Notes: a model not told the origin generated them from the sequence alone. DNA of 64,000 bases from Candidatus Krumholzibacteriota bacterium (GCA_963764625.1 CAVXTH010000008.1:64001-128000), one strand, 5' to 3'. Numbered from the stretch's first letter, positions 39 through 23,946 are shown. A program made the numbers and translations.

Positions 39-248
39 TGAGATCACCTCGATGGACTCCAGGCAGGAATGAATGCGGACCGAGATCGATTCTGACTCGA
101 TCTCGCAGTCCAAGGAGGATCGGCCATTCACCGCTCTGGGTCAAGGGAGCGAGGTTCGGTGAACCCCGCGCACTGCTCCTTGAAGCGGGCGGCACGCGCG
201 GCCCGTAGCCAATTGACCCCGAATCACCTCGATGTCACACTCTGTCTC

Positions 249-2339
249 ATGCACACCGCCCTCCCCTTGACCTCCGCCTTGCTGTGGATTCGCTTCGCAC
301 TTGGCGCCGTCGCGCTCGTCTGGCTCCCCGGTCATCTTCTGGCGGGACGGTGGCTGCGCGCGCAGGATGCGCTGAGCCGATGCGTGGTGTCGATCTCGGT
401 CGGCCTCGTCCTACCTTTCGTGTATTTCGCCCTCCTGGGACGCCTCGGGCTTCCCTTCCGGCCGCTCTATTACCTTCCCGTAGTCCTGATCCTCGGCGGG
501 CTCTCCTCCCTCTGGTCCACCTACCGGCTTGCGATCGCGAACTGGTCGGAGAATCTCGGGGCGCTGGGCCGCGTGGAGGTCGTGGCGGCATCGAGCGCCG
601 TGCTCCTTTCCTTTCTGCTTCTTCTCGCCGGATTCTCGCAGATGCCTGCGCCACCCCACATCCTCGATGCTTCGAATCACGCCTGGCTCACGCTGCGGAT
701 CGTGGAGACGGCCAGTCTGGATGCCGCCAGAATCAACGGAGACTTGGCCGGGAGAGTGGAAGTGGGGTATCTGCCGGGGCTCCACGCATCCGCGGCGCTG
801 ATCGCGCGCCTCTGCCGCGTCGCCCCCTACGTTTCGGTATGGATGCTGACGCTGCTCCTGTGCGCCATGATTCCCGCCGCCTGGTCGCTCCTCTGGCGAG
901 GGTGGGGAGTTCCCCCCCTCGCACTTTCCCTGGCACTCCTTCTCTGCGTCGCGAATCCACTGGGGCCGGGCGGCATTCTGGGCTGGGGGGGGTTCGGACA
1001 GATCGCCGGCTTCTTTCTGGTGCCGGTGGGAGCGCTGGCGGTGCGCTCTGTCTGGCGCAAGCCCAGCGTGCCCGCAGGATTGGTGGCGGGGATCTTCCTC
1101 GGGGGTCTGGTCTTCGTACACGCGAGCGAAGTGGGGGTGGCGCTGGGAGCCGCCCTTCTCTGTCTCGACGGCCGCATCCACAAGCATCTTCGCGCCGGGC
1201 TGGTGATGCTGGCAGCGATCCTGGTTGTCTGTGGTCCGGAGGTTTGGCACGTCGCCGCGGACTATCCGCGGACGATCGCGGCCGAGCTCCCGCTGCGCAA
1301 GGAGTTCCTCGATTCGCTCACGCGTCTGTGGCGTGCCGGGGGACACGGTATCGTGTTCCAAGTCCTTTTGCCGGCGGGGTGGATCTTGGGGCTCAGGACC
1401 GCTTGGGCTCGCCGCCTCGCGCTCACCAGTCTCATCCTCGGCGCGTTCTATTTGCTTCTGCAGACCCTGGCCGATCCCTTTACGCGTTTGCTGGCGACTC
1501 CTTTCTACCGCCAGGCCCCTCGCATTCTCTACCTGCAGTTCTACTTTCTGCCTCCCCTTTTGGCCCTACCTCTCACGAAAATCTTGCGCCACGCTCGCGC
1601 GGGTGCGAAGGCAAATGTCGGCTTCATCTTCAAGACTTCGTTCCTGCGCGGTCTGGTCGGCGGCCTGCTTCTGGCTGCGCTCGTCCCCGGACTCACGCGC
1701 GTCCTAGAGAACTATCGTTCCTGCCGTTCGCTCGTTCCCTTCACGGTGGATGACTATCGGCACGCGCAGGCTCTGCATGCCCTGGTGCCCGATGGCGCGA
1801 TGGTGGCCAACCTGTGGGACGACGGGAGCGTGTGGGCCATGCACGTGAGCGAGAGACCTTTCTTGCAACCCTGCGCGTGGCCCCTCATCAGCCCCTCGGG
1901 GAAATCTCTGCACGAGCTGAGCAAGGGTCTAGCGGATGACCCCTGGCCTCAGGAGACGGTGCGTCTGCTGCAACGCCTTCGCATTCACTATCTCTACGTG
2001 AGTGACGGCGTGTGGGGAAAAGGCAGCGGCCTGCGTCGAAAGGATTTCGACGCCGACGCACGCTACCGAATTTTGCTCGCAGGCTCTCAGTTCCACTCTC
2101 TATGCCATTCGTGGCGCGCCGGATCCTCCTTTTTACCCGCCATTCTCCTCTTCCTCGCTCGCCACCGGCGCATTCAGGTTGGCCCGATAACTCTCGTCGA
2201 GGAGCATCGCGACCAGAGCGGCGCCGCCGTTGCTCTCTCCCAATTCCTTGGCCATGGGCACGAAGCGTCGCATGCGCTCCAATTCGAGATTACTGCAGCC
2301 GCGAAGCCTCGACTCGAGCTGCGCGATGAGGCGCTCTGA
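249..2339 (+). CDS. Polytopic membrane protein, DUF6541 / GT-C glycosyltransferase-like; true 3' end uncertain (probable frameshift near 2088)
   Basis: Many hydrophobic segments; loop motif DASNH...YLPGLH; soluble C-terminal domain (VANLWDDGSVW, IHYLYV). The ORF overlaps the convergent helicase by about 200 nt, while another frame gives a more plausible end (SSTLYAIRG). Confidence 0.6.
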   Translation: MHTALPLTSALLWIRFALGAVALVWLPGHLLAGRWLRAQDALSRCVVSISVGLVLPFVYFALLGRLGLPFRPLYYLPVVLILGGLSSLWSTYRLAIANWSENLGALGRVEVVAASSAVLLSFLLLLAGFSQMPAPPHILDASNHAWLTLRIVETASLDAARINGDLAGRVEVGYLPGLHASAALIARLCRVAPYVSVWMLTLLLCAMIPAAWSLLWRGWGVPPLALSLALLLCVANPLGPGGILGWGGFGQIAGFFLVPVGALAVRSVWRKPSVPAGLVAGIFLGGLVFVHASEVGVALGAALLCLDGRIHKHLRAGLVMLAAILVVCGPEVWHVAADYPRTIAAELPLRKEFLDSLTRLWRAGGHGIVFQVLLPAGWILGLRTAWARRLALTSLILGAFYLLLQTLADPFTRLLATPFYRQAPRILYLQFYFLPPLLALPLTKILRHARAGAKANVGFIFKTSFLRGLVGGLLLAALVPGLTRVLENYRSCRSLVPFTVDDYRHAQALHALVPDGAMVANLWDDGSVWAMHVSERPFLQPCAWPLISPSGKSLHELSKGLADDPWPQETVRLLQRLRIHYLYVSDGVWGKGSGLRRKDFDADARYRILLAGSQFHSLCHSWRAGSSFLPAILLFLARHRRIQVGPITLVEEHRDQSGAAVALSQFLGHGHEASHALQFEITAAAKPRLELRDEAL

Positions 2340-4855: not shown

Positions 4856-5646
4856 GGGAGGGAGGGCAACATCAATTCTCCTCGGATGGTCTCCACCGCG
4901 TGGCCGCCGATGTGCACCCGATTGCCGTGGATTTCACCAACCACTTCTCCACCTCGTTCAGAGAGTTGCCGCGCTGTGAGGTGGTCTTTTCCCAGGCGCT
5001 TGCCCCAGTACGGGAGGAGCGTGCAAAAAACAGAACCGGTCACCGGATCCTCGGGGACCCCCACTTTGGGCGCGAAGAACCGGCACACGAAATCGACTTC
5101 CTTGCCTGGAGCGGTCGGGCACACCCCCATGACGTCGAGCTGCTTCAGCATCTCCATGTCGGGGCGTAGAGCGCGCACGTCCTCCTCGCTCTGAAGAACC
5201 GCCAGAAGATCGCGCGCTTCTCCGCACCATTCCGGCCGCACTCCCAGGGCTTCGACCAGCCGAGGGTCGATCGGAACTTCCTTGGCCGGTCGCGCCGGAA
5301 AATCCAGCCAATGGCGTCCGTCATGGCGAAGGACGCGCAGCTCGCCGCTGCGTGGGCTATTGAACACGACTTCGCGTCCCTGGGCGCGACCGTCGAGAAA
5401 GAGCGCAAAGGCGGCGGCCAGAGTGGCGTGACCACACAGATCGATCTCGACCGAGGGCGTGAACCACCGCAGTCCCCACGATTTTCCCTGGGGGACCACG
5501 AAAGCGGTCTCCGAGAGGTTCTTTTCCCGCGCGATGGCCTGGAGGACCTTGTCGGGCAACCACTCGTCGAGAATGACCACCGCGGCGGGATTTCCCGCGA
5601 ACGACTGATCCGCGAATGCATTCACTTGGTGAAACGGAAATTTCAT
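4852..5646 (-). CDS. PhzF family isomerase
   Basis: VNAF...GNPAAV, NLSETAF, LRWFTP.EIDLCGHATLA and EDPVTGS; start moved to MKFPF (ATG at 5646). Confidence 0.93.
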   Translation of the reverse strand: MKFPFHQVNAFADQSFAGNPAAVVILDEWLPDKVLQAIAREKNLSETAFVVPQGKSWGLRWFTPSVEIDLCGHATLAAAFALFLDGRAQGREVVFNSPRSGELRVLRHDGRHWLDFPARPAKEVPIDPRLVEALGVRPEWCGEARDLLAVLQSEEDVRALRPDMEMLKQLDVMGVCPTAPGKEVDFVCRFFAPKVGVPEDPVTGSVFCTLLPYWGKRLGKDHLTARQLSERGGEVVGEIHGNRVHIGGHAVETIRGELMLPSLP

Positions 5647-5759
5647 GTCGACAGTCCTTGAGAGGCAATCACGAGTCGCGAGCCGAAGCGGCCGCACGCG
5701 CCAGTCCGGCTGTCAAGATGCTCGGCATTCGCCTCGAAAGTTGCAAGCTCGAAGAAAGG

Positions 5760-6011
5760 TCAGCTCTTTAGATCTTCCTCCCGGCGAGTTTCATCGCCGT
5801 TCTCGTAGGAAGCGAGGAGTTGGCGGGCCGCTTCGGCGAAAGGCTCCGGAACGATGAGTCTCATGCCCTCGCCCAGATGCATTTGCGGATACATGCCGCC
5901 GACGTCGTCGTTGAGCAGTCGGCAGGGGATGCCATTGGCGATCAAGAGCCCCTTAGCGATTTCCGCCTGCGGAACCTCCGTGTAGCGAGCGATCTCGACT
6001 TCAGCACTCAT
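5760..6011 (-). CDS. Small DUF2007-like (putative signal-transducing) protein
   Basis: Pattern AEIAKGLL.ANGIPC...RLIVPE..AEAARQLL. Confidence 0.8.
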   Translation of the reverse strand: MSAEVEIARYTEVPQAEIAKGLLIANGIPCRLLNDDVGGMYPQMHLGEGMRLIVPEPFAEAARQLLASYENGDETRREEDLKS

Positions 6012-6069
6012 GATGACACCTCGAGCCCGTGAATGGTCGATCCGCGAGGGTGATACTCTCGCGGCGGTT

Positions 6070-6297
6070 TCAGTGGATCCGCGCTTTGATCAGGTCGATC
6101 ACTTCGTCGCCCTCGGGAAATCTCTCCACTTCGTACTTGGAGAAGATCAACTCGTCATCGAGCTTCACGTCGAAGATGCCGTTGCGCCCCTCGATGAGCT
6201 CGGGCTTGAGCTTGAATTTCTTCTGGATGCGCTCCGCCAAACTGGCGGCATGAGGGAGGTAGTTTCATTGAACGCAATACTGAATGCTGATTTTCAT
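6070..6297 (-). CDS. Rdx / SelW-SelT-SelH family selenoprotein, 75 aa, CxxU (in-frame UGA read as Sec)
   Basis: Hand translation MKISIQYCVQ(U)NYLPHAASLAERIQKKFKLKPELIEGRNGIFDVKLDDELIFSKYEVERFPEGDEVIDLIKARIH*. UGA at 6267-6265 sits in the IxYCxxU motif; downstream G.FDV, IFSK and RFP are typical of the family; a SECIS-like hairpin follows. Confidence 0.92.
6234..6248 (-). promoter_or_regulatory. Bacterial SECIS-like hairpin
   Basis: CCGCCA-GUU-UGGCGG stem-loop, with the loop G 23 nt downstream of the UGA. Confidence 0.75.
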
Positions 6298-6524
6298 GCC
6301 TTCGACTCCGGAAGCTGAAAGGATGATTCTCTCCTCGCACGATAGGCCGAGGATATCGCTCTCGCAACCAGAGGCGCCAGGGAAGACCCGGGCTGCCCAG
6401 TGCCTCGGCGTAGCGGGGACTGGACGTGATCGCCGAAAGGGTGGAAAGTTAGGGTCGAGCGCTGGCGCCCAGACGAGACGCCGGATTTTCAAGAGTAACC
6501 TTTCATCTCCAGGGCATTCCGTCC

Positions 6525-7421
6525 GTGAGTAGCACCCCTCATTCCGATCCCCCTTCCCCGCCGTCCAGCCAGACGCGGCAGGACACGACACTCTCCTCCG
6601 AGCAGGAGCGTGACGCCTGGCGCAGGGTCTATCCGGTGGGTCGGGAGTTTCTCCCCACCTGGAGCGTGTTGGACGGGCACTACCGCTGTCGTTTCGCGAC
6701 GAATGCCGAGGAACTCGATCGAGTTCTGAGGTTGCGCTACGAAGTCTTCAACCTCGAACTCGGGGAGGGACTGGACGAAAGTCACGCCACCGGGCTCGAC
6801 CGGGATCGCTTCGACGACCACTGCCACCACATGATTGTCGAGGATCTCGACACCATGGCGACCGTGGGAACCTACCGGCTCCAGGTGGCACAGATGGCGA
6901 GCGTGGGGCGCGGTTTCTACACGGCCCAGGAATACGACATGCGATCGTGGCCGGCGGACATCCTGGAGCAAGCAGTGGAGACCGGGCGCGCGTGCATCCA
7001 CAAGGATCATCGCAAGAGCAAAGTCCTCCAGCTTTTGTGGAAGGGACTGGCCGCGTATGCCCTCCACAACCGCCGGCGCTATTTCTTCGGGTGCTGTTCC
7101 CTGACGAGCCAGGATCCGGCCGAAGGCGCTCGGATGCTCGAATACCTGCGTCAACACGGGCATCTGCATCCCGCGATTCGCACCCAAGCCCATCCCGCCT
7201 TTGCCTGTCACGAGGAAAACGAATCGGCGGAGGGCTGGGAGCAGTCGCGGATTCCTCCGCTCTTCCGTACTTATCTGAGGTACGGAGCTCGTATCTGCAG
7301 CCAGCCCGCCCTGGACCGGCAATTCAAGACGATCGATTTTTTGGCCCTGATCGATCTGACCGAGGTGGATCTGGTGAGAGTGCTGCGACTCACTGAAATC
7401 GATCTCGACACCCGGGTATGA
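6525..7421 (+). CDS. GNAT N-acyltransferase, OlsB (ornithine-lipid N-acyltransferase)-like
   Basis: LRLRYEVF, DRDRFDDHCHH, VGTYRL, ETGRACIH.DHR, YFFGCCS, PPLFRTYLRYGA and ALDRQF.TIDF. Confidence 0.88.
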   Translation: MSSTPHSDPPSPPSSQTRQDTTLSSEQERDAWRRVYPVGREFLPTWSVLDGHYRCRFATNAEELDRVLRLRYEVFNLELGEGLDESHATGLDRDRFDDHCHHMIVEDLDTMATVGTYRLQVAQMASVGRGFYTAQEYDMRSWPADILEQAVETGRACIHKDHRKSKVLQLLWKGLAAYALHNRRRYFFGCCSLTSQDPAEGARMLEYLRQHGHLHPAIRTQAHPAFACHEENESAEGWEQSRIPPLFRTYLRYGARICSQPALDRQFKTIDFLALIDLTEVDLVRVLRLTEIDLDTRV

Positions 7422-8188
7422 AGCATCTGCGCGCGATTCTTCGCTTTGTTGGACTCGCTTCGTGGACTCTTTGCGTCTTTGCCGTCTTCTTTGCCTTGCG
7501 CTTCATCTTGATGGCGTGGCAGAGCGCGGTCGTGAAGCTGAAAGTCGTCACTTTCAGAGTCTGGGCCAAGGGAACAGCGGTGATCTGCGGCATGCGGATT
7601 AGCCGGGAGGGCACCCCTCCCAAACCGCCCTTCGTTCTGGTGAGCAACCATCTCAGCTACATGGACATCGTACTCCTGGCCACACAACTGGAAGCCTTTT
7701 TCATATCCAAGGCCGAAGTCGCGCACTGGCCAGGCATTGGTTTTCTCGCCCGCCAGTTGAGCACGATTTTCGTGGATCGCGAGGATCGGGGAGACCTCCA
7801 CCGGGTCCTGGATCTCATCGAGGATGCTCTGCACTCCGGGGTTGGAGTCGTGTTCTTTCCCGAAGGAACGAGCAGCGATGGCTCGGACGTGATGCACTTC
7901 AAGTCCTCACTCTTCGACGTTCCGCTGCGACTGGGATACCCAGTCTATGCCGCCGCCATCCGATACGAAGCCCGCGAGGGCTGGATGCCGGCTTCGCAGT
8001 CCATTTGCTGGTGGGGCGACATGACCTTTCCCGACCATCTCTACCGAATGTTGGGGATGCCCAGCTTCTACGCCCACGTCGTCTTCGGTGAAGGCGTGGC
8101 CCACCGCCAGACCCGGCGAGAGTTCGCCGACGCTCTCCACCTGGCGGTGAAGAAAGGCTTCGCGCCCGCGCAGAGGGTTCGGGGATGA
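7418..8188 (+). CDS. PlsC/OlsA-like lysolipid O-acyltransferase
   Basis: NHLSYMD, FVDR and FFPEGT motifs; ATGA overlap with the upstream gene. Confidence 0.92.
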   Translation: MKHLRAILRFVGLASWTLCVFAVFFALRFILMAWQSAVVKLKVVTFRVWAKGTAVICGMRISREGTPPKPPFVLVSNHLSYMDIVLLATQLEAFFISKAEVAHWPGIGFLARQLSTIFVDREDRGDLHRVLDLIEDALHSGVGVVFFPEGTSSDGSDVMHFKSSLFDVPLRLGYPVYAAAIRYEAREGWMPASQSICWWGDMTFPDHLYRMLGMPSFYAHVVFGEGVAHRQTRREFADALHLAVKKGFAPAQRVRG

Positions 8189-10809
8189 CGTCCTTCCTCC
8201 GGGGTCATCCAAAGCGCTGGCTTCTTTTGGTCTATCTCTTTCTCCTCCTCACCTCTCATGTCTACCAGTGGCTTTCCCACTCTCGCTTACCGATTCCACC
8301 CAACTGCTCGCAATTTTCGGCCCACGCCGTGAGAGACACGACGCGCCGGGCCGATCGCCCAGTGTGGCTGGTGTACAAGGATCTTTCGCCCGAGAATGGG
8401 GCCACATCGAAGATCCCGGTTCTCCTCCTTCATGGTTCGCCGGGGAGCCTGCGAGACTTTGAAGAGCTGGAGAAGCTGCTAGCCAGGGACCGGCGGGTGA
8501 TTGCACCCAGCTTTCCGGGATTTGGGCGCTCGCAACGAGACGTTCCCGACTATTCCACCCGAGCCGATGCCGACTATTGCCTTCAGCTGCTCGATGGGCT
8601 GGGGATACAGCGCGTCCATCTGGTGGCGTTCTCCATGGGGGGAGGAGTCGCGCTCAATTTCTACGATCGCGCCCCCCGGCGCGCGGCCTCGCTTTCGATG
8701 GTGGGATCGATCGGAGTCCAAGAACTCGAGCTCTTGGGAAACTACGAGCTCAATCACATCATCCATGGAATCCAGCTCGTGTTCCTCTGGGGACTGGAGG
8801 AATTGACGCCGCACTTCGGATGGTTCGACGACAACGTGTTGAGCGTGGCCTACGCCAGGAATTTCTTCGACACCGACCAACGTCCGTTCCGCGGGATCCT
8901 TCGCCGCTTTCAGCCCCCGGTTCTCATCATTCACGCCCGGAACGATTCGCTGGTGCCCTTTGCCGCGGCCCGCGAACATCACCGGCTGGTACCGCAGAGC
9001 GAACTCGACGTCTTTCCGTCCGGGAATCACTTCATTCTGTGGAGCGCGGGTCAACGCATTGCCTCCGACCTGGACCGATTCTTCGACGAGGTCGAAGCCG
9101 GCAAGGCCCTCACCCGCAAGCTCGCCACTCCCGAGCGAATCGCGGCCGCCGCAGAGCCCTTCTCGAAAGTGGAAGTGCAGCCGGCAGAGGGGCTGTCGTT
9201 GTTCATCCTTCTCTTGCTCATTGTGATCGGCACGTTCATCACCGAAGACATCACCTGCATTACCACCGGACTCTTGATCGCTCACGGACGACTGCCGCTG
9301 GCGGCCGGGTTCTCGGCCTGCTTTCTGGGCATCTACCTGGGGGATCAGCTTCTCTATCTCGCGGGTCGAGTACTCGGGCGTTCGGCGGTACACCGCGCAC
9401 CCTGGAAGTGGATCGTCCACGAGGAGGATCTACGTCTGGCGGCAAGCTGGTTCGAGCGCCGGGGCATGATGGTGATCCTTTTGAGCCGCTTCATTCCCGG
9501 CACGAGACTCCCCACCTATCTTTTGGCGGGAGCAGTGCGCGCGCGCTACTGGCTCTTCGCTCTCTATTTTTTTGTCGCGGTGGCTCTGTGGACCCCATTG
9601 CTGTTGGGACTCACCCTGGTCATCGGCGAACGGGCCACGCCCCTGTGGGCTCAATTCGAGCACAATGCGTTCTGGGTGCTCGTGTTGACCTTGCTGACCG
9701 TGATGGTGTTCCTGCGGGGAGTCATTCCAGCCTTCACCCACCGCGGCCGGCGACTTCTGCTGGGACGTTGGCGTCGTCTTACTCGATCGGAGTTCTGGCC
9801 TCCGTGGGCCATCTATCCGCCGGTCGCGCTCAAGATTCTCGCGCTCAGCGTCCACAGAGGAGGATTCACGCGCGTCACCGCGGTGAATCCGGCCATCCAC
9901 CTGGGTGGTCTGGTGGGAGAGAGCAAGGGGAAGATTCTGCGTGGGCTCTCCCAAAGCGCCGAGTACGTGGCCACCACGCGCGCTCTTTTCCACTCGCTCA
10001 CTCGCGAGCAATTGCTGGAGCAGGCACGCGCGTTCATGGCGGAGGAGGCACTGGACTTCCCCATCGTTCTCAAGCCCGACCGCGGGCAGCGGGGTCGGCA
10101 CGTGTTCATCGTGCGGTCTTTGGAGGAACTCGATGAGAGGCTCACCGAGGCGAGCGCTTCCTCGAAGAGAGAGGATCTCTTGCTCCAGGAGTACGTGGCC
10201 GGACCGGAATACGGGGTGTTCTACCGGCGCTTCCCGGGACAGGAACACGGGGAAGTCCTCTCGATCACCGAAAAGCGAATGCCACGGTTGGACGGGGACG
10301 GCAAGCGCCGGCTCGAGGAACTCATCCTCGATGACAAGAGAGCGGTGTGCATGGCACGGGCGTATATGACCGGTCTCGCCGACCGGCTCTTCGAGGTCAT
10401 TCCCGCCGGGGAATCGATTCAACTCGTCGAGCTGGGATCGCACTGCCGGGGCGCGATCTTCCTCGATGGAGGGCACTTACTGAGCCGCGAGCTGCAAGAG
10501 CGTATCGATCTCATCGCACGGCGCTTCGAGGGCTTCTACTTCGGGCGTTTCGATCTCCGCGCAGAGAGCGAGGAGGCCCTGCGAGAAGGCCGGGATTTCA
10601 AGATCCTCGAGCTCAACGGACTCACGGGGGAAGCCACCCACTTCTATGATCCCCGGTATTCCGTGCTGGAAGCCTGGCGGGTATTGACGCGTCAGTGGGC
10701 CGATGCCTTCGCCATCGCCGATGCGAACATCGCGCGTGGCGCACGACCGGCCAGCCGCGGCATGGTCATCCGTGAGCTGCTTTGGTTCTTGGCACACCGC
10801 CGCGACTAG
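8185..10809 (+). CDS. Fusion protein: alpha/beta hydrolase + DedA/VTT membrane domain + ATP-grasp-like domain
   Basis: HGSPGS, AFSMGG, NDSLVP and GNH (hydrolase); GTFITED, GDQLLY and SRFIPGTR (DedA); VLKPDRGQRG, LLQEYV, FYFGRFD and ILELNG (ATP-grasp). Confidence 0.85.
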   Translation: MTSFLRGHPKRWLLLVYLFLLLTSHVYQWLSHSRLPIPPNCSQFSAHAVRDTTRRADRPVWLVYKDLSPENGATSKIPVLLLHGSPGSLRDFEELEKLLARDRRVIAPSFPGFGRSQRDVPDYSTRADADYCLQLLDGLGIQRVHLVAFSMGGGVALNFYDRAPRRAASLSMVGSIGVQELELLGNYELNHIIHGIQLVFLWGLEELTPHFGWFDDNVLSVAYARNFFDTDQRPFRGILRRFQPPVLIIHARNDSLVPFAAAREHHRLVPQSELDVFPSGNHFILWSAGQRIASDLDRFFDEVEAGKALTRKLATPERIAAAAEPFSKVEVQPAEGLSLFILLLLIVIGTFITEDITCITTGLLIAHGRLPLAAGFSACFLGIYLGDQLLYLAGRVLGRSAVHRAPWKWIVHEEDLRLAASWFERRGMMVILLSRFIPGTRLPTYLLAGAVRARYWLFALYFFVAVALWTPLLLGLTLVIGERATPLWAQFEHNAFWVLVLTLLTVMVFLRGVIPAFTHRGRRLLLGRWRRLTRSEFWPPWAIYPPVALKILALSVHRGGFTRVTAVNPAIHLGGLVGESKGKILRGLSQSAEYVATTRALFHSLTREQLLEQARAFMAEEALDFPIVLKPDRGQRGRHVFIVRSLEELDERLTEASASSKREDLLLQEYVAGPEYGVFYRRFPGQEHGEVLSITEKRMPRLDGDGKRRLEELILDDKRAVCMARAYMTGLADRLFEVIPAGESIQLVELGSHCRGAIFLDGGHLLSRELQERIDLIARRFEGFYFGRFDLRAESEEALREGRDFKILELNGLTGEATHFYDPRYSVLEAWRVLTRQWADAFAIADANIARGARPASRGMVIRELLWFLAHRRD

Positions 10810-12071
10810 TGATCCGACGCGAGCGAGCGATCAAAGCCCAACAGAATGATTTCGTTGTCGTCCGCTATGCCCTCTCGTTCGTGTCGACCGACGCTTTGGG
10901 GAAAGTTGTTGTCGTTGCACACGGCCAGAGTGTGATCATCGATCTTGGCGATTCCTTCGAGCGTGATGAAGGGCATGGCGAGAGTGCCATCGATCCGACT
11001 CCCCTCGACCCCGGCCGCGATCTCCATGGGGTCGGGAATGCGCAAGAGATCCGCCAGCTCGCTCTTGCGCAGGATGCCACGCGTCTTTTGGTCGAGATGT
11101 ACGAGGTAGATCTTCTTGAACCGCGCGGCCGATCCCTGCTCGTTGTCCCGCTCGAGAACCACCACGATGTTTGGGGCGATCACTGCCAGCGCTCCGATGT
11201 AGTGGCCGTGTTCTGACTGGAGGGGATAGTATTCAAACGGCGGATCCCCCACGAACTTCTCCTCGGCAGGATCGAAGCGGTAGAGTCGTAGAGTTCCCGG
11301 AGGATCATTCGCCGCGGTTTTCTCGAGCAGACCGTAGAGCACCTTGCCATCGGGGGAACCGCCCAATCCTTCGAAGCCTCCACTCGAAGGATGGTTGGCC
11401 GCATCTCCCTTCAAGAATGGGTTCTCCGGAGCTGTCACCCCCGGAGTCGGGACCGGAGCCGAGAGGAGCTCGCCCTTAGCATCCAGGTGCAAAAGAAAAG
11501 GCCCGAACTCATCGCCGACCCAGAAGCTACCGTCGGGTACCGCCACCAGCCCCTCCGGGTCGAAGTCGGCTCCGGTGAGCAAACGTCGAGCTTTGATCCG
11601 CGAATCGACGGGGTCGCTCGTTCCGGGGTAGGTCTCTCTCTCGGCAACCAACTCGAATCCGGCACGGCGGTGGGGATCGCTCAGTTCGATGACTTCCTCC
11701 ACCGAGATCGTGCCGTTCTCAAAATCCGGTCGCACATGGTAGAGCGCCAAGACGAAATCCACCGAATTCTCGCGGGTTCCAAAGCCGTTGTCGCTGAGAG
11801 CCCAGAATCCGCCTTGGGGAGCGATCTCGAGGTCCGAGAAACCCTGGACCGGCTGCTTGTCGACAAAGGGTGTGGTGATTTTGTTCTGGGAGGGGATCTT
11901 TCGCCCGCTCGTCGGGCCATCACGAAATGTGCTCGCATTCAGTACTGCACGCCCGGCCAAATGATAGGGCGGCACTTGGCCGGCGCCTTCCGGCTGGGCC
12001 TCACTCGTAGCTCTACAAAGGCTCAAAGCCGACAGGACAAGCAGAAGAACTGAAGACCGCTGCAACCGCAC
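10806..12071 (-). CDS. Secreted phytase-like esterase family (beta-propeller) protein
   Basis: Signal peptide; QPVQGFS, LSDNGFG, DFDPEG, GDEFGP, GFEG and NDNNFP. Confidence 0.85.
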   Translation of the reverse strand: MRLQRSSVLLLVLSALSLCRATSEAQPEGAGQVPPYHLAGRAVLNASTFRDGPTSGRKIPSQNKITTPFVDKQPVQGFSDLEIAPQGGFWALSDNGFGTRENSVDFVLALYHVRPDFENGTISVEEVIELSDPHRRAGFELVAERETYPGTSDPVDSRIKARRLLTGADFDPEGLVAVPDGSFWVGDEFGPFLLHLDAKGELLSAPVPTPGVTAPENPFLKGDAANHPSSGGFEGLGGSPDGKVLYGLLEKTAANDPPGTLRLYRFDPAEEKFVGDPPFEYYPLQSEHGHYIGALAVIAPNIVVVLERDNEQGSAARFKKIYLVHLDQKTRGILRKSELADLLRIPDPMEIAAGVEGSRIDGTLAMPFITLEGIAKIDDHTLAVCNDNNFPQSVGRHEREGIADDNEIILLGFDRSLASDH

Positions 12072-12221
12072 GTTCGCCTCCCGGACAGAACGCTGCGAGA
12101 GTAAGCAAATTCGCGTAACGCGACAAGACTGCCCGAAACCAGACCCTCGGCCGGATGGAAGCTCGACTCCATGCCATCGGCCTCTTACACTTCTTTGTAA
12201 TCTTCAACGAAAGGCCCGACC

Positions 12222-17650
<5,429 letters not shown>

Positions 17651-17704: not shown

Positions 17705-20002
17705 CTAGGGAGTTAGACTGCAACCCTGCCCCAATGCCCCGATCTGCACCGCGCAACTATTGTTGCCCGGCAGAAGGGGCGAGCTCGAGTTCACGGTGTA
17801 GACGTCATTGTCCGGATCACAGAATTGCGGATCTTCCGAGAAGCTTCCCGCGCCAGGATCCGTGCCGGGTCCATATTCGAGCGACCCGTTGGACCAGAAG
17901 TCGTTGCAGGACAACTCGACGAAGTTCAAGTCGTTGCCGGTAAGGCCCGCGGGGGAATTGAACGCGACCACGCTCTCGGTCAGACTCATGACTCCGGAAC
18001 GGTGACCGATCGCGGCCGATCCGCCGCTGTTTTTGGTAATGGTGCATCCCACGAGCGTCAGTGATCCGCCGGGTAGGTCCTGTCGGCTGTACACGGCGGC
18101 AGGCGCGAACTGGGTGGGAGACCTGAGACTATTGTGCGCCATGACACAGTTCTCGATCCTGAGGTTCTTGGTCAGGTCCCGGGCGTAGATAGCTCCGGCC
18201 GAGGAGGATTGGTTTCGCAGGAACGAGCAATCGGAAATCACGAGGTCCTCGGCCAAATCGATCATGTAGAGCGCGCCGGCGAGGACTCCGAAATTGTCCT
18301 GCAAGACGACGCCCTGAAGCTCGAGAGTCGACTCGTTGCAATAGATGGCCCCGGCATCGCCGACGATGCCCGATCCCCCGATGTTCCCACTAAACACGGA
18401 TCCATCGGCGAAGCGCGCATGTCCTTCATAGAGATACAACCCGCCGGCTCCGCTCTGCCCGTTGTTGCCGGCAATGGTGGTATTGGTTCCTTCGAAGCTG
18501 CCGCCGTTACGAATGACCATTCCTCCGCCGGTGAGCAAGGCCAAATTTGTCTGGACCTGAAGATTCACCGCGACCGCGCTGGCGCCATCGAGCAGCAATC
18601 CCGCCCCCACCGAACTCACTTCGTTGTCGTGGATACTCGCTCCATCGACGCTGAGCGAGCTCGCGCCGTCGAACAGGGCCACCCCACCCCCGCTGACCGC
18701 GGTATTGCTACTGATCTCGGTGTCGGAATCGAGCGTCACGCTCGCTCCCATCGACGCCTTCAACCCCCCTCCGTTGGGCTCTTGGGGATCGTTTTCCAAC
18801 TCCCGACTGACCCAGTCCTTCGCATTCTCCGTCACGAGAGTTCCACTCAACTGGAGGTTCAATCCGTCACCCGCCGCGAGGATTCCATTTCTAAAAGAAG
18901 AGGAGACCTCGCACGATTCCATGCGGAAGACGTGGTCCCCGCCGGTGGATTCCGCGAAGATCCCGAACCCGTCAGTGTCGTCCTCGGTGCTGCGTTTCGT
19001 GCTGACGATTTGGCTGGAAACCAGAGAGTCCGTGGAATCGGTGCTCCAAACTCCATAGTGAATGTTGGAACCCACGGTCACGTCTTGCAGGCGAAGGGTT
19101 CCCCCGATGGTTCGGATCCCTCCCAGGCCGTTGCGAAGAACCTGATAGCTTCTGAGTTCGAGGCGACTGTCGTTGACCACCGCCCCCCACTCGGTTCCAT
19201 CTCTGATTTCGGAGAGCGTGGTGATACCTTCTCCAGAAAGTGCGAGATTGCTTCCCGACTCCAGCCAAATGCCCGCCGCGACATTGGTGTAGAATCCCGT
19301 ACGTTGCACGCTCCCGCTCGCGCCATCGGTAAGGGCTAGCCCCACCTGGTTGTCTTCGAAAAATATCGAAGCCGCGCTCAGCACCGACCCCTGGCACCAA
19401 AGACCCGCCGTCATGGCCGCCGGAGTCATTCCGTCCTGACTCAGACCGTTGCGCCGGAAGAAGCACTGCCACAGCACAACCTCGCCACCGGCGGGTACCT
19501 TGGCCGGTCCGCCGCCGACACGCACTCCGAAGCTGGCGTTGTCCATAATATCGCACTTGCGCATCACCAGCGGCACCGCCGAGGTTTCGACGATCATGCC
19601 CTCGCGCGCCCCATTGAAGCCGAAGCCCTCGAAGATCAGACTGTCGGAGGCGCTGAAGCTACCCGAAACCTGGACCACCACCGAGGTCGAGTCGGAACCA
19701 TTGGTGAGGATCGTGTGTTCCTTCCCGGCGCTGGAGAGGAAGTGGAGGGGTTTGTCGATGACGAGGGTTCCGTCGTATTGGCCCGGGAGAACAACGATGA
19801 TGTAACCGGCTTGCGCCTGCGCTACTGCCTGGGACAAAGGAGCCATCGTTCCCATGCTGTCAGGATAAACCGTGAGGTCGCCCTGTGGAATCACGTTCGG
19901 CAACGGATCGGTCGTGCCGCCATCCTGAGATGAGCAGCCAGCAACCGCCATCACGAACGCGAACAGCAAGATGGAAACCCATGATTGTACCGCTGTCTTC
20001 AT
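17705..20002 (-). CDS. Right-handed parallel beta-helix repeat lipoprotein
   Basis: Lipobox VAGC; repeated N.A..GGG / GAIY strands; C-terminal DPQFCD...SPLLPGN..C...IGA.GQGC cap. Confidence 0.82.
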   Translation of the reverse strand: MKTAVQSWVSILLFAFVMAVAGCSSQDGGTTDPLPNVIPQGDLTVYPDSMGTMAPLSQAVAQAQAGYIIVVLPGQYDGTLVIDKPLHFLSSAGKEHTILTNGSDSTSVVVQVSGSFSASDSLIFEGFGFNGAREGMIVETSAVPLVMRKCDIMDNASFGVRVGGGPAKVPAGGEVVLWQCFFRRNGLSQDGMTPAAMTAGLWCQGSVLSAASIFFEDNQVGLALTDGASGSVQRTGFYTNVAAGIWLESGSNLALSGEGITTLSEIRDGTEWGAVVNDSRLELRSYQVLRNGLGGIRTIGGTLRLQDVTVGSNIHYGVWSTDSTDSLVSSQIVSTKRSTEDDTDGFGIFAESTGGDHVFRMESCEVSSSFRNGILAAGDGLNLQLSGTLVTENAKDWVSRELENDPQEPNGGGLKASMGASVTLDSDTEISSNTAVSGGGVALFDGASSLSVDGASIHDNEVSSVGAGLLLDGASAVAVNLQVQTNLALLTGGGMVIRNGGSFEGTNTTIAGNNGQSGAGGLYLYEGHARFADGSVFSGNIGGSGIVGDAGAIYCNESTLELQGVVLQDNFGVLAGALYMIDLAEDLVISDCSFLRNQSSSAGAIYARDLTKNLRIENCVMAHNSLRSPTQFAPAAVYSRQDLPGGSLTLVGCTITKNSGGSAAIGHRSGVMSLTESVVAFNSPAGLTGNDLNFVELSCNDFWSNGSLEYGPGTDPGAGSFSEDPQFCDPDNDVYTVNSSSPLLPGNNSCAVQIGALGQGCSLTP

Positions 20003-20060
20003 CGAACCACTCCTGAATACGATCGTTGACACTTTGGATCGTTCCACTACTTCACCGAAA

Positions 20061-23000
20061 CTACTTCACCAGGACCATCTTGCGTTGGCCTGCGACTTCA
20101 CCATTGACCACCAGGCGATAGAGGTACACGCCGGCTGACACCACTCCCCCGTCATCATCGCGTCCGTTCCATACGGCCCGCTGAGAACCGGGCGGCAGCT
20201 TTTCGTTCACCAACGACGCCACTTTGCGCCCCCGGACATCGAAGACGCTCAACTGAACGGCCCCGCCCACTGGAAGATCGTAACGAATCACCGTCTTGGG
20301 ATTGAACGGATTGGGATAATTCTGAGCGAGAAGCGGAGCGACGGTGGGAGGGATCGAGGGAGCGTCCGTCGCCTGCTGCTTCGCAACCGACCCGTCGCGC
20401 AGGAAGAACACATTCACCAGTGCATTCGTCTGATCGATGATCGCCAGGTCCAACTTCCCGTCGCGGGAAACGTCTCCAATGGCGACGTCGGTGGCGAGAT
20501 CTCCCGCCAGATAGAGCGCCGCGTCGCCGAAGGTGCCATCACCGACACCGTCCCGCACCGATACCCCGCCCCACGCCGAGATCACGGTGATCAGATCGAG
20601 GTGCGTGTCGTTCGTGAGATCCGCCAGATAGACCTTCTTGGGCAGCAAGGGATATCCGGTGACTCGGCGGCCGGCCGCGTAGGTCGAACCCTCTTGAAAA
20701 GTGCCATCTCCGTTGCCAAGGTAGATGACCACGTCCTCCTGGCTTGCGCGCACGATCGCAATATCGTCGAAGTTGTCTTCATTCATGTCGCCACACGCCA
20801 CCGCCACCGGTTGGCCGTCGACCTGGAACACGTTGCTGACCGGCCGATCGGTACTAACGAAACTGTGATTCGGATCGTTGAGGAAGATGTTCACGTCGCC
20901 CGTCGCGCTGTTGATCGAAACCAGATCGGCTTCCCCGTCAGCATTGAAATCGCCCACCGCAATCGCTCCGGCGCCGGGAACACCGCCTCGGCCGCCTTTG
21001 TAGGCAAACGCGCGTCCCGCGCCAACCGCCTGCGTGGAATCATCCGGCGCTCCGACGACCCAGTCGCTATAGCCATCCTGGTTGAGATCCCCGCCTCCGG
21101 CGATCACCGCGCCGAAACTGGCTCCGGGGATCTTCCCCGAGGCGATGGTAACCGTGCCGCTGACGTTGGTCGATCCGCCAGCGAGCAGATAAACGCGCCC
21201 GTACTCGTTGCGTTCTGGACTGCCGACGAGCTGGAACTGATAGCCCGGAGTCCCGATCAGAACATCGTTGCGGTCGCTCTCCTTGGGATGTCCAGCTGCG
21301 GCCACGCTCGTACCGAAGAGAGCGTTCGTCTGGGGGCCGCTGATTTGGATACTCGCGGTGCCAACCGCCGCAGGCCCACCGAAGTAGAAGAGGACAGCCC
21401 CAAAGTTTTGCCCTCCGGGCGAATCGTATCGGGGGGCACCGGCCGCGATGTCATCGATGCCGTCTCCGTTGTAGTCCCCGATTCCCGCCACGGATGCCCC
21501 CAGCCCCGCGGTGGCGGACGGCCCGTCTCCCGCGAGGAACGGAATGTTGCTCGAGCTCCCGCCGGCAAAGACGTAGACCCTGCCGGCTTGGATCTGGGTC
21601 TCCCCGTGGTGCGGAGCCCCGACGACCAGGTCCTCAATACCGTCCGCACTGAAGTCCCCCGCCGCGCCAACACTGGCGCCAAATTGATCTCCGGCCGCCT
21701 CACCATCCAGGACGAGATCGGCGGACCCGTCGAAGCCGCCCCCGTAGAAGAGGTAGCAACGTCCCGCGTCGGCCCCGACTCCGTCGTAACTCGGAGAACC
21801 GGTGACCCAATCGTCGATGCCGTCGTCGTTGTAATCCAATCCCGATGCAAGACTGGATCCCATGGCCTCGCCGTCTTGTGAGCCACCGACGGAGAGATCG
21901 GGAGTGACGTCCTCGTTACCGCGATAGAGATAGACCATACCCCCATTTGGCGCGCCGCTGTTGTTGTCCGGCGCGCCGATGAGAATGTCATCGTTGCCGT
22001 CGTTATCGATATCTCCAAAGGCAACCGCGGCTCCAAACCTCTCGCCGGCCTGAGGACCGACGAAGGTCAGGTCCGCAATCGAATCCAGCACCGCCGCGCC
22101 ATAGTAGAGGCGCACCGTGTTCTCGCCGGGAAAGCCCACGAGCACATCGCTGAAGCCGTCGTTGTTCGCATCACCGATGGCGACCGAACGTCCAGCTTCG
22201 GCCGAAGGGACTCCGTTGGAGTAGCCTGCGTCGCTGTCTCCGTTCACATCTGTTTGATCGATCGCGAGCTGAATGTCCTTCCTGTAGCTTCCGGTAGTGA
22301 CGGTCGGGCCCATCATCATGCGGATGAGGTCCAGCCGTCCGACATCAGAGCTGAAACTGATGATGTCATCCACTCCGTCGCGATCGAAATCAGCCACGAC
22401 GACGTCACGAGGCTTTTGTACCTGAAGACGAACTGGGATGGCGAGAAGCGAATTATTCGCCGGATCGGGACCGAAAATGCTCACGAAATTGCTGGCGGAG
22501 TTCACGGCAACGACCGAAGGAAGCTGGTTCGTCGTGAAGTGACCCAATGCCATCGCTTCGGGCACCACGTTGGTGTTTCCCGAATACGTAGTGTCGTTGA
22601 ACCAGACCGGACCGGGTCGACCCTTGCGTACGGTGACGGCGCTCGCGTTGACGTCCAGGGTCAGGAGGTCCATGTAGCTGTCGCCGTTGAGATCGGCCAG
22701 GAGAGCCCGAATGGGTTTCGGGCCCGTGCTAAAGCGCAAAGGCGAGAAGCCCCCGGCGGCAGCGCCGCTCGTACCCAAGCCGTTGAGAATCACGATGCCG
22801 TGACTCCAGTGCGCGGCCACCGCGATGTCGGCGAACCCGTCGCCGTCGATCTGAGCGGGAACAACCCGCATCGGGCGGAATCCCGCGAAATAGAGCGATT
22901 GGTTGCCGTAGGTTCCCACACTGTTGCCGACACTCACTCCCACCTGATTCTTCGCCTCGAGGGCGTACACGAGATCGAGGTTAGTGTCGGGGGTCATGAT

Positions 23001-23946
23001 TCGCGAAAGCGACCGAACGCGGTGAACCGGCAGCCGCGATCTGGGTCGTGAAGCCGAACAGACTGCCGTTGCCCTGGGCCTGGGCCGTGGTTTCCAGGAT
23101 GGTGATCTTGTTGGCGTAGTAGTTCGCAAAGGCCAGATCGTCGATTCCATCCACAAGCGCGCCCGCCGAGGCGGCAACTGGACGCGGACCGCTGTTCAGA
23201 GTGCCCTTCAGCGTAAAGCCGCCGCCATTTTGACCCAGGTAGAGAGTGGCATTGTCGGAGAGGAAGTTCGCCGTGACCAGATCCACCACGCCGTCGTTGT
23301 TGAAATCACCCGTGACCAGATCGATGGGGCGCGATCCCGCGTCGAGAACCTCGTTTCCCAAGAATCCTCCAGCCCCGTCGCCGTAGAATACGCTCACGTT
23401 GTCCGACCAGTAGTTGGCAGCTGCAATGTCGTCGTGTCCATCGCCATTGAGGTCCTCGAAGAGCACCGCCACCGGGTATTGCCAGACTCCAGGCGCCGGA
23501 CCGGGAAAAAACGTCCCGTCGGGAGTGCCGCCGGGAGTCCCCGCCAACCAAATGGAGACCCGTCCCGCGGCGGCCTCGGTCACCACGAGGTCGGTGGCCG
23601 AATCACCGTTGAAGTTTCCCGTCGCAATGTCCCAGGGTTCTTCGCCTACGGTGAAGGTCGATGCCTCGTGGAAGGTGCCGTCGCCCGCGCCCCCGACGGT
23701 GTTGGCGAGGAGAATGGAAACCGTGTGCTCCGCGTAATTCACGACCGCAAAATCGGAAACTCCGTCGGCGTTGAAATCTCCCACCGCCATTGCATCGGGG
23801 TTGAGTCCGGTCGGGATCAAGGCGCCGGAATACAGAGCACCCGCGCGGAGAGGACGCACGTAAAGGAGAAGGGAAAAGAGGGCGATCAGAAGGAGCAGGG
23901 CGTGAGGGAAGCGGCCCGTTCTCCTTTCACTAGAACTCGCGAACAT
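20061..23946 (-). CDS. Large secreted FG-GAP/VCBS repeat protein with a C-terminal FlgD-Ig / T9SS-CTD-like domain; split by a frameshift at G5 22989-22993
   Basis: Many GDFNxDGxxD and VGAP...GRVY repeats; QNYPNPFNP...AGVYLYRL C-terminus. Deleting one base joins the two ORFs as ANHDPDTNLDLV. Confidence 0.85.

Follow-up and report, generated by a model that had tools for sequence, protein, structure and literature searches.

A three-gene operon for OlsB- and OlsA-like enzymes and a hydrolase–DedA–ATP-grasp fusion: a candidate for head-group extension of aminolipids

By one estimate, about half of the bacterial species sequenced so far encode aminolipids, which take the place of phospholipids when phosphate is limiting and under stress (PMC12971839, a 2026 review cited throughout from the portions available). 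In the known systems OlsB and OlsA alone are enough to make ornithine lipid, and relatives of OlsB use glutamine, glycine or lysine (PMC12971839). The available portions of the review report no known gene for the ATP-dependent transfer of taurine onto the carboxylate of ornithine that gives cerilipin, and they name none for extending glycine lipid to serine-glycine or ornithine-serine-glycine lipids. Here we describe an operon from a Candidatus Krumholzibacteriota bacterium in which genes for an OlsB-like and an OlsA-like enzyme are followed by one for an 874-residue fusion protein that combines an alpha/beta-hydrolase, a DedA membrane domain and an ATP-grasp domain. It lies in a stretch of 64,000 nucleotides (GCA_963764625.1 CAVXTH010000008.1:64001-128000), which we call the window and analyzed computationally. 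To our knowledge, the known aminolipid tailoring genes act by hydroxylation and N-methylation only, and the cerilipin taurine transferase has been without a gene for decades. The operon is a concrete and widespread candidate for the missing head-group-extension gene.

We propose that the operon makes a tailored acyloxyacyl aminolipid by ATP-dependent head-group extension, flipping and periplasmic editing. The proposal is built by analogy, and we give it an even chance of being right. The strongest argument for the fusion acting on aminolipids is its linkage to two types of aminolipid synthase, OlsB/OlsA and OlsF. A full-text literature search found no description of the fusion or the operon, in agreement with an initial annotation of this DNA, which knew of no characterized product for the arrangement. 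No Ols operon with a hydrolase–DedA–ATP-grasp gene was found described in the literature, including the available portions of PMC12971839 and PMC12493201, and in those of PMC11631085 ATP-grasp occurs only as an entry in the reference list. The present work adds a minimal three-gene form and a phylum, sampled with 101 genomes, where a single family accounts for every occurrence of the whole unit.

Three overlapping genes

The three open reading frames (ORFs) lie exactly where the initial annotation had placed them, and a sequence check found an ATGA overlap at both the gene 1/gene 2 and the gene 2/gene 3 junction. The genes and the parts of the fusion are as follows.

6525..7421, plus strand: gene 1, OlsB-like GNAT, 298 residues, GTG start (ORF map)
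7418..8188, plus strand: gene 2, OlsA-like PlsC-type O-acyltransferase, 256 residues (ORF map)
8185..10809, plus strand: gene 3, 874-residue fusion of an N-terminal membrane anchor with alpha/beta-hydrolase, DedA and ATP-grasp domains (ORF map)
8209..8277, plus strand: N-terminal membrane helix, residues 9–31, after a positively charged tail; predicted signal anchor with the N terminus inside (model, charges)
8308..9096, plus strand: alpha/beta-hydrolase domain, residues ~42–304, predicted periplasmic (Pfam, alignment, Foldseek)
8632-8634, 8944-8946 and 9028-9030, plus strand: codons of the predicted catalytic triad Ser150, Asp254 and His282 (codons checked)
9184..9732, plus strand: DedA/VTT membrane domain, residues ~334–516 (Pfam VTT, NCBIfam, alignment, charges)
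9766..10806, plus strand: ATP-grasp ligase domain, residues 528–874, predicted cytoplasmic, starting with a conserved hydrophobic helix (model, Foldseek, profile, alignment)

Gene 1 encodes a GNAT protein of the Acetyltransf_5 family (PF13444, 105.4 bits against a Pfam cut-off of 22.4) and gene 2 an acyltransferase of PF01553 (85.5 bits against 23). The latter carries HX4D at His78 and PEG at residue 148, which we take to be the motifs that define its PlsC-type family.

Domains, topology and relatives of the fusion

We confidently assign to residues 528–874, on the strength of a structural model, the fold of an amide-forming ATP-grasp ligase with CphA, GshF and Ddl as its nearest relatives. 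The Pfam ATP-grasp models remained below threshold (RimK, 16.3 bits against 21; TTL, 15.6 bits against 20.1), so that the ATP-grasp-like domain of the initial annotation, weak by Pfam, owes its confirmation to the model, to Foldseek and to a profile search of the Protein Data Bank (PDB). The AlphaFold2 model of this segment (predicted local distance difference test, pLDDT, 93.1; predicted TM-score, pTM, 0.90) had as its best Foldseek match in the PDB the ATP-grasp domain of GshF (3ln6, E 1.5e-11). Further matches were the cyanophycin synthetases CphA2/CphA1 (7ta5, 7wac, 7lg5) and many D-Ala-D-Ala ligases; those to GshF, CphA and Ddl each had a probability of 1.00, with E from 1.5e-11 to 1e-8. 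A profile built from the domain and 65 homologues translated from locus DNA (alignment A2) recovered 7ta5 (E 3.2e-9), CphA1 (E 6e-8) and Ddl (E 2e-6) among PDB sequences. Lys630, Arg788, Asp790, Glu809 and Asn811 are invariant in A2 and in A1, an alignment of 29 full-length fusion homologues of 45–78% identity. These residues include the ELN motif singled out by the initial annotation, Glu809-Leu-Asn811, whose codons were checked. The conserved Lys, Arg-x-Asp and Glu-x-Asn are presumably equivalent to the corresponding residues of Ddl. In GshF, CphA and Ddl a carboxylate is activated as an acyl phosphate before the amine is joined, and in CphA, GshF, Ddl and RimK the carboxylate comes from the larger partner. 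A membrane-lipid substrate would, as far as we know, be new to the ATP-grasp superfamily.

The ATP-grasp domain of the fusion belongs to a separate subfamily: an exhaustive profile search returned 5344, 2894 and 1704 representatives at E <= 1e-3, 1e-10 and 1e-30, respectively, and the 1704 are taken as the subfamily. It ranges over Acidobacteriota, Gemmatimonadota, Verrucomicrobiota, Balneolota and Planctomycetota as well as the Krumholzibacteriota-like family. The conserved hydrophobic helix opens the domain in the 65 locus-derived sequences of A2. Of the 150 best-scoring representatives, 72 have 780 residues or more, 5 have 700–779, 55 have 470–699 and 18 fewer than 470. Stand-alone ATP-grasp forms of ~373 residues are common (1043 matches among shorter proteins, some of which may be fragments). 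A word-indexed search with the whole fusion found 808 relatives at E <= 0.001 among 8000 candidates scored; the best 120 of these are 740–916 residues long, are 46–95% identical to the fusion and carry the source names Acidobacteriota, Pyrinomonadaceae, Blastocatellia and Gemmatimonadales. The Atlas clusters listed have Acidobacteriota, Verrucomicrobiota, Balneolota, Gemmatimonadota or Planctomycetota as their commonest phylum, and they include a 781-residue DedA plus RimK protein from Balneolota and a 581-residue hydrolase plus DedA protein from Gemmatimonadota. Judged from these sequences, what is constant in the family is a membrane-tethered ATP-grasp domain, usually fused to DedA, and the hydrolase is frequent but dispensable.

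This constancy bears on the possibility that plain aminolipid is the end product, which the fusion would export through its DedA domain and turn over through a lipase or deacylase activity of its hydrolase, with the ATP-grasp domain serving regulation or re-synthesis, for example by re-ligation. We hold this to be distinctly unlikely. The hydrolase does resemble small carboxyl-esterases, and OlsB and OlsA suffice for ornithine lipid elsewhere (PMC12971839), but the ATP/Mg and catalytic residues of the ATP-grasp domain are all invariant, and no other element of the family is as constant as this domain, which is found on its own, with DedA and in the triple fusion. Together, its constancy and its invariant residues argue for an essential catalytic role.

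The DedA part matches Pfam VTT over residues 361–475 (59.8 bits against a cut-off of 33.9). Two pairs of residues are invariant in the 29 homologues of A1, Glu354-Asp355 in the first predicted re-entrant loop and Arg435/Arg441 in the second; helices 336–352/354–366 and 441–450 of the whole-fusion model (pTM 0.60), together with the loop charges, are compatible with two such loops. An acidic pair with two arginines is the signature of the COG0586 subfamily, which is associated with undecaprenyl-phosphate flippases (Todor et al., PMC10127716, portions available). This fit, and a best NCBIfam match to the undecaprenyl-phosphate transporter UptA (52.6 bits), would be expected if the fusion handled a phosphate lipid, either undecaprenyl phosphate or a phospholipid, and were a neighbor of aminolipid genes through a shared envelope or phosphate-stress response. 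The UptA score is, however, far below the equivalog cut-off of 250, and the linkage data given below speak against this explanation, which we regard as unlikely. The DedA fusions listed in the available text of Todor et al. are to rhodanese, PAP2 and pyridine-nucleotide oxidoreductases, none to a hydrolase or ATP-grasp domain (PMC10127716).

The hydrolase domain matches Abhydrolase_1 over residues 78–293 (97.8 bits, Pfam). The Ser-Asp-His contexts noticed by the initial annotation correspond to Ser150, which sits in a small-x-Ser-x-Gly elbow, Asp254 and His282, all invariant in A1. A model of the whole fusion (pLDDT 85.0, pTM 0.60) had small carboxyl-esterases and related alpha/beta-hydrolases (8pi1, 1va4, 4uhd, HsaD) as its best Foldseek matches (E ~1e-12), with a target TM-score of ~0.7 for the esterases; such fold matches say nothing specific about the substrate. 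With Abhydrolase_1 and VTT detected by Pfam and ATP-grasp by structure, the triple fusion within 874 residues was borne out, and from their conserved residues all three domains look catalytically competent. By analogy with OlsI, an alpha/beta-hydrolase-fold acyltransferase that acts on an aminolipid (PMC12493201, portions available), the hydrolase domain could also be a transferase. No OlsI-named model was present among the 22 NCBIfam families that it matched at E <= 1e-5.

Topology was predicted from charges and homology. The mean net charge in A1 is +3.5 for the N-terminal tail, +5.1 for loop 393–430 and +5.9 for residues 515–538; it drops to −1.3 behind the first helix and is close to zero immediately ahead of residue 334 (+0.2) and in residues 481–495 (0.0). 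TMEM41B spans the membrane with four helices and has two re-entrant loops; its termini are both cytosolic, and loop 1 enters from the side opposite the N terminus (Okawa et al., cysteine accessibility, preprint 10.1101/2020.12.18.423352, portions available). Among the relatives of 470–699 residues, the length of a DedA–ATP-grasp protein, 53 of 55 have the loop-1 motif. In 20 of these 53 a K/R-led hydrophobic, signal-like segment precedes loop 1, joined in 5 of them by a lipobox-like motif; another 23 have tails of at most 12 residues devoid of Lys and Arg, and the other 10 are of other types, a few being fragments of triple fusions. These N termini agree with an outside-facing N-terminal flank of loop 1. 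We therefore think it probable that the N terminus lies inside, that helix 9–31 crosses the membrane to place the hydrolase outside, and that loop 1 (336–366) dips in from the outside. For the C-terminal half we have good confidence in a path in which helix 372–392 runs inwards to a cytoplasmic loop, loop 2 (~431–450) dips in from the inside and two further crossings leave the ATP-grasp domain inside. The far-side hydrolase of the initial annotation is thus backed by prediction from the charge pattern, the topology of TMEM41B and the signal- or lipobox-type N termini.

A topology in which helix 334–352 is a full transmembrane helix, which would leave the hydrolase in the cytoplasm, was considered and rejected on the grounds of TMEM41B, the positive N-terminal tail and the N termini of the relatives. 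The same lines of evidence fit a reading of this helix as the opening half of re-entrant loop 1, which would dip in from the periplasmic side.

The predicted layout of a ligase inside, a flippase and a serine enzyme outside is also what would be expected of vectorial transfer. In such a carrier cycle, which the Dlt route of D-alanylation resembles, the ATP-grasp domain would load a group onto a lipid, DedA would flip it, and the periplasmic hydrolase would pass the group to lipopolysaccharide, peptidoglycan or protein. Alpha/beta-hydrolases can indeed be acyltransferases, OlsI being an example (PMC12493201). Transfer would require the hydrolase, however, yet many relatives have no hydrolase domain, and ORF clustering of the loci described below revealed no recurrent acceptor-related genes. 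We consider such a cycle rather unlikely.

Gene linkage and distribution

Within the phylum, 62 of the 101 sampled genomes have some match to the fusion at E <= 0.001, mostly to a single domain. Near-full-length matches (E <= 2e-185) occur in seven, all from the window's own family, which contributed eight genomes to the sample. OlsB-like matches at E <= 1e-10 are found in these eight genomes only; in the eighth, where the fusion was not matched, the contig ends 1.2 kb after the OlsA-like gene. OlsB-like and OlsA-like genes lie directly upstream on the same strand in all six relatives from this family that have the fusion. The seven fusion sequences group together in a quick tree (SH-aLRT 88, below the 95 mark), which is compatible with, and does not prove, a single origin.

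In a wider survey of metagenomes, 615 of 646 pattern matches code for a relative, and further analysis used the best 80 loci. Thirty-four of these have at least 3600 bp of upstream sequence and were counted; 7 of the 46 left uncounted still show both genes. Both genes lie upstream on the same strand in 23 of the 34, an OlsB-like gene only in 1, an OlsA-like gene only in 2, and neither in 8. The 28 countable loci with a complete C-terminal domain fall into 24 clusters at 70% identity, 18 of which contain at least one locus with both upstream genes. Recurrence in many divergent lineages places the three-gene arrangement far beyond chance. The conserved co-occurrence expected by the initial annotation was therefore found in the family, in the metagenome loci and in the co-distribution across the phylum.

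Of the eight loci with neither gene in place, L050 has a divergent gene (5039-6952, minus strand) for an OlsF-like bifunctional synthase (396 bits over model positions 20–569 of 570, cut-off 620), and its sister L068, one of the uncounted loci, has a similar match (371-1093, minus strand). L076 and L120 have an OlsB-like and an OlsA-like gene, respectively, on the other strand. Upstream of the fusion at L053 (42-4808, plus strand) and L069 (2479-7218, plus strand) is a protein of ~1580 residues that has an AMP-binding domain and a GNAT at opposite ends. This type, also present at L064 (52-1890, plus strand), has a fatty-acyl-AMP/CoA-ligase-like N terminus, ~780 unassigned residues and a C-terminal GNAT, and could be another kind of N-acyl amino acid synthase. 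L091 and L119 retain only a DinB-like neighbor.

The linkage to aminolipid synthases in 18 of the 24 clusters, through two synthase types that are not orthologous, counts against the handling of a phosphate lipid, as does the restriction of the fusion within the phylum to genomes where an OlsB-like gene occurs. Nor do the neighborhoods show any recurrent polyprenyl or glycosyl genes.

A crude clustering of the ORFs from 86 loci and from the window's first 20 kb identified further genes that recur near the operon in other lineages: a DinB-like protein of 170–190 residues (23 loci), a TANGO2/NRDE protein of 240–260 residues (22 loci), a protein with ferric-reductase-type transmembrane and Rieske domains (12 loci), a 243-residue protein encoded downstream (10 loci) and DoxX (7 loci). 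Examples of accessory genes, from within L037–L118, are L075:7266-7781, L116:7102-7839, L047:4458-5555 and L044:7456-7881. One idea is that they perform redox or thiol chemistry on the lipid. A family search found no TANGO2 in the genome studied here (96.4% complete), and a single query, from L075, found no DinB-like protein, which is weak evidence of its absence. The genome thus has the bare three-gene form, and a form that dispenses with the DinB, TANGO2 and redox accessories is the simplest version for expression in E. coli.

Two related loci, L082 (1115-1951, minus strand) and L091 (6330-7292, minus strand), have a serine-acetyltransferase-like (hexapeptide/SATase_N) gene beside the fusion, as seen in a Pfam scan of the L091 protein only; this neighbor could be due to chance or could hint at the added group. 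A separate contig of 1882 bases, L002, is filed under an Actinomycetes metagenome-assembled genome and encodes a C-terminal fragment 69% identical to the fusion; it is probably a mis-binned contig from a relative of the present organism.

In the window, one further feature adjoins the operon.

5698..6524, plus strand: intergenic region of 827 bp between a divergent PhzF-like gene and gene 1; presumed promoter region (ORF map)

This region holds only short ORFs, and a scan of positions 5500–12500 gave no Rfam match. The minus strand upstream encodes the PhzF-like protein, an RlmL-like methyltransferase and a DEAD helicase. At its 3' end the operon faces a convergent phytase-like gene, and an M16 peptidase gene also lies downstream. 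The flanks have no obvious functional tie to the operon. Among the loci compared, the phytase-like and M16 peptidase neighbors are common only to two from the same genus, L035 and L036. A locus search of genome contigs with the fusion as its single query gave just two loci, and L001 is the contig that also appears as L035. Elsewhere in the window, adjacent genes at 17705-23177 (minus strand) encode a 780-residue right-handed beta-helix protein and a 1038-residue FG-GAP repeat protein with a FlgD-Ig-like C terminus, both probably secreted surface proteins. A 726-residue DUF6541 protein, with a nearly end-to-end match (model positions 1–611 of 646), is encoded at 159-2339 (plus strand).

Proposed pathway and comparison with known systems

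The genes, their domains, the conserved catalytic residues and the gene linkage are direct observations, and the topology is a prediction; from these we infer each of the following chemical steps, the amino acid, the added group and the carriage of an aminolipid by DedA. Gene 1 would add a 3-hydroxy fatty acid to an amino acid by N-acylation, the ornithine type being the nearest model, and gene 2 would esterify a second fatty acid, with the cytoplasmic face as the site of aminolipid synthesis. Tethered to the membrane through a hydrophobic helix of its own, the ATP-grasp domain would phosphorylate the free carboxylate of the lipid head group, by analogy with its structural relatives, and join an amine or amino acid to the activated carboxylate through an amide bond; it is gene linkage that points to an aminolipid as its substrate. 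The DedA domain would then move the product to the outer leaflet of the inner membrane, where the periplasmic serine hydrolase may remove the added group or an acyl chain, or transfer it, and so set the level of product.

Several observations weigh against this pathway. The best NCBIfam models of gene 1 are two OlsB equivalogs, at 131.4 and 131.1 bits against cut-offs of 350 and 320, and those of gene 2 are OlsA equivalogs, at 142.5 and 130.9 bits against 300. The OlsB and OlsA labels of the initial annotation hold at the level of GNAT and PlsC-type domains and fall short at that of the equivalogs, so the amino acid of the lipid may or may not be ornithine. The DedA features set out above mean that its cargo might be a phosphate lipid. 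Many relatives have no hydrolase domain: 55 of the best 150 representatives have only 470–699 residues, and Pfam found VTT without it in 8 of 10 scanned proteins of 524–711 residues, so the hydrolase is not essential to the core. The pTM of the whole-fusion model is low, and the topology is based on charges and homology. In eight of the 34 countable loci neither gene lies upstream on the fusion's strand; at one of these at least, L082, nothing lipid-related and no acyltransferase was found in the locus DNA examined. Finally, a promoter scan of positions 5600–12300 found no sigma-70-like site (1.2 expected), and neither a promoter nor a terminator stood out clearly in the scanned operon region.

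The operon can be compared with several described systems. It shares with the OlsB/OlsA pathway (relatives GluB/OlsA, GlsB/GlsA and OlsF) a pair of GNAT and HX4D PlsC-type enzymes, here adjacent and translationally coupled, but differs in that both enzymes are far below the equivalog cut-offs. OlsI, the O-acyltransferase of the OlsH/OlsI pathway, is alike in its alpha/beta-hydrolase fold and aminolipid setting, as compared by description only (PMC12493201); here, by contrast, the operon already has an OlsA-like enzyme of PlsC type for the O-acylation, and the predicted site of the hydrolase is the periplasm. With the cerilipin taurine transferase the likeness is one of reaction type only, namely ATP-dependent amide formation on the carboxylate of ornithine lipid (PMC12971839).

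The DedA transporters (UptA and the scramblases TMEM41B/VMP1) share the VTT domain and the acidic pair and arginines at COG0586 positions, and the helix pattern is compatible with their two re-entrant loops. The present domain differs from them in falling short of the UptA cut-off and in being flanked on both sides by fused enzymes; if the proposal is true, a DedA protein gains a cargo other than polyprenyl phosphate. The ATP-grasp ligases (the G domain of CphA1/CphA2, GshF, Ddl and RimK) resemble the C-terminal domain in fold, profile match and the conserved Lys/Arg-x-Asp/Glu-x-Asn, whereas that domain is only 10–19% identical to solved structures, starts in a hydrophobic helix and either forms a fusion with DedA or has its gene next to one for DedA.

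The closest counterpart in layout is the aminoacyl-phosphatidylglycerol synthase/flippase MprF, which works with a periplasmic hydrolase (AcvB/VirJ, PA0919). We suggest, more tentatively than the pathway itself, that the ATP-grasp domain is the first of a class of membrane-lipid head-group ligases and spends ATP to lengthen an acyloxyacyl aminolipid at its free carboxylate. Coupled in one polypeptide to a DedA flippase for a phosphorus-free lipid and to a periplasmic editing hydrolase, it would make the fusion a non-homologous counterpart of MprF plus AcvB. MprF-type transferase and flippase families were absent from the best Pfam and NCBIfam families of the three proteins (for the fusion, the best 25 of 57 NCBIfam families). 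MprF and AcvB have the layout proposed here, with cytoplasmic head-group ligation, a built-in flippase and a trimming periplasmic hydrolase of alpha/beta fold, but no part of one system is homologous to the other. MprF has a tRNA-dependent transferase where the fusion has ATP-grasp, and its own membrane domain in place of DedA; its partner is a VirJ-type hydrolase rather than Abhydrolase_1, and its lipid is phosphatidylglycerol instead of a presumed phosphorus-free aminolipid.

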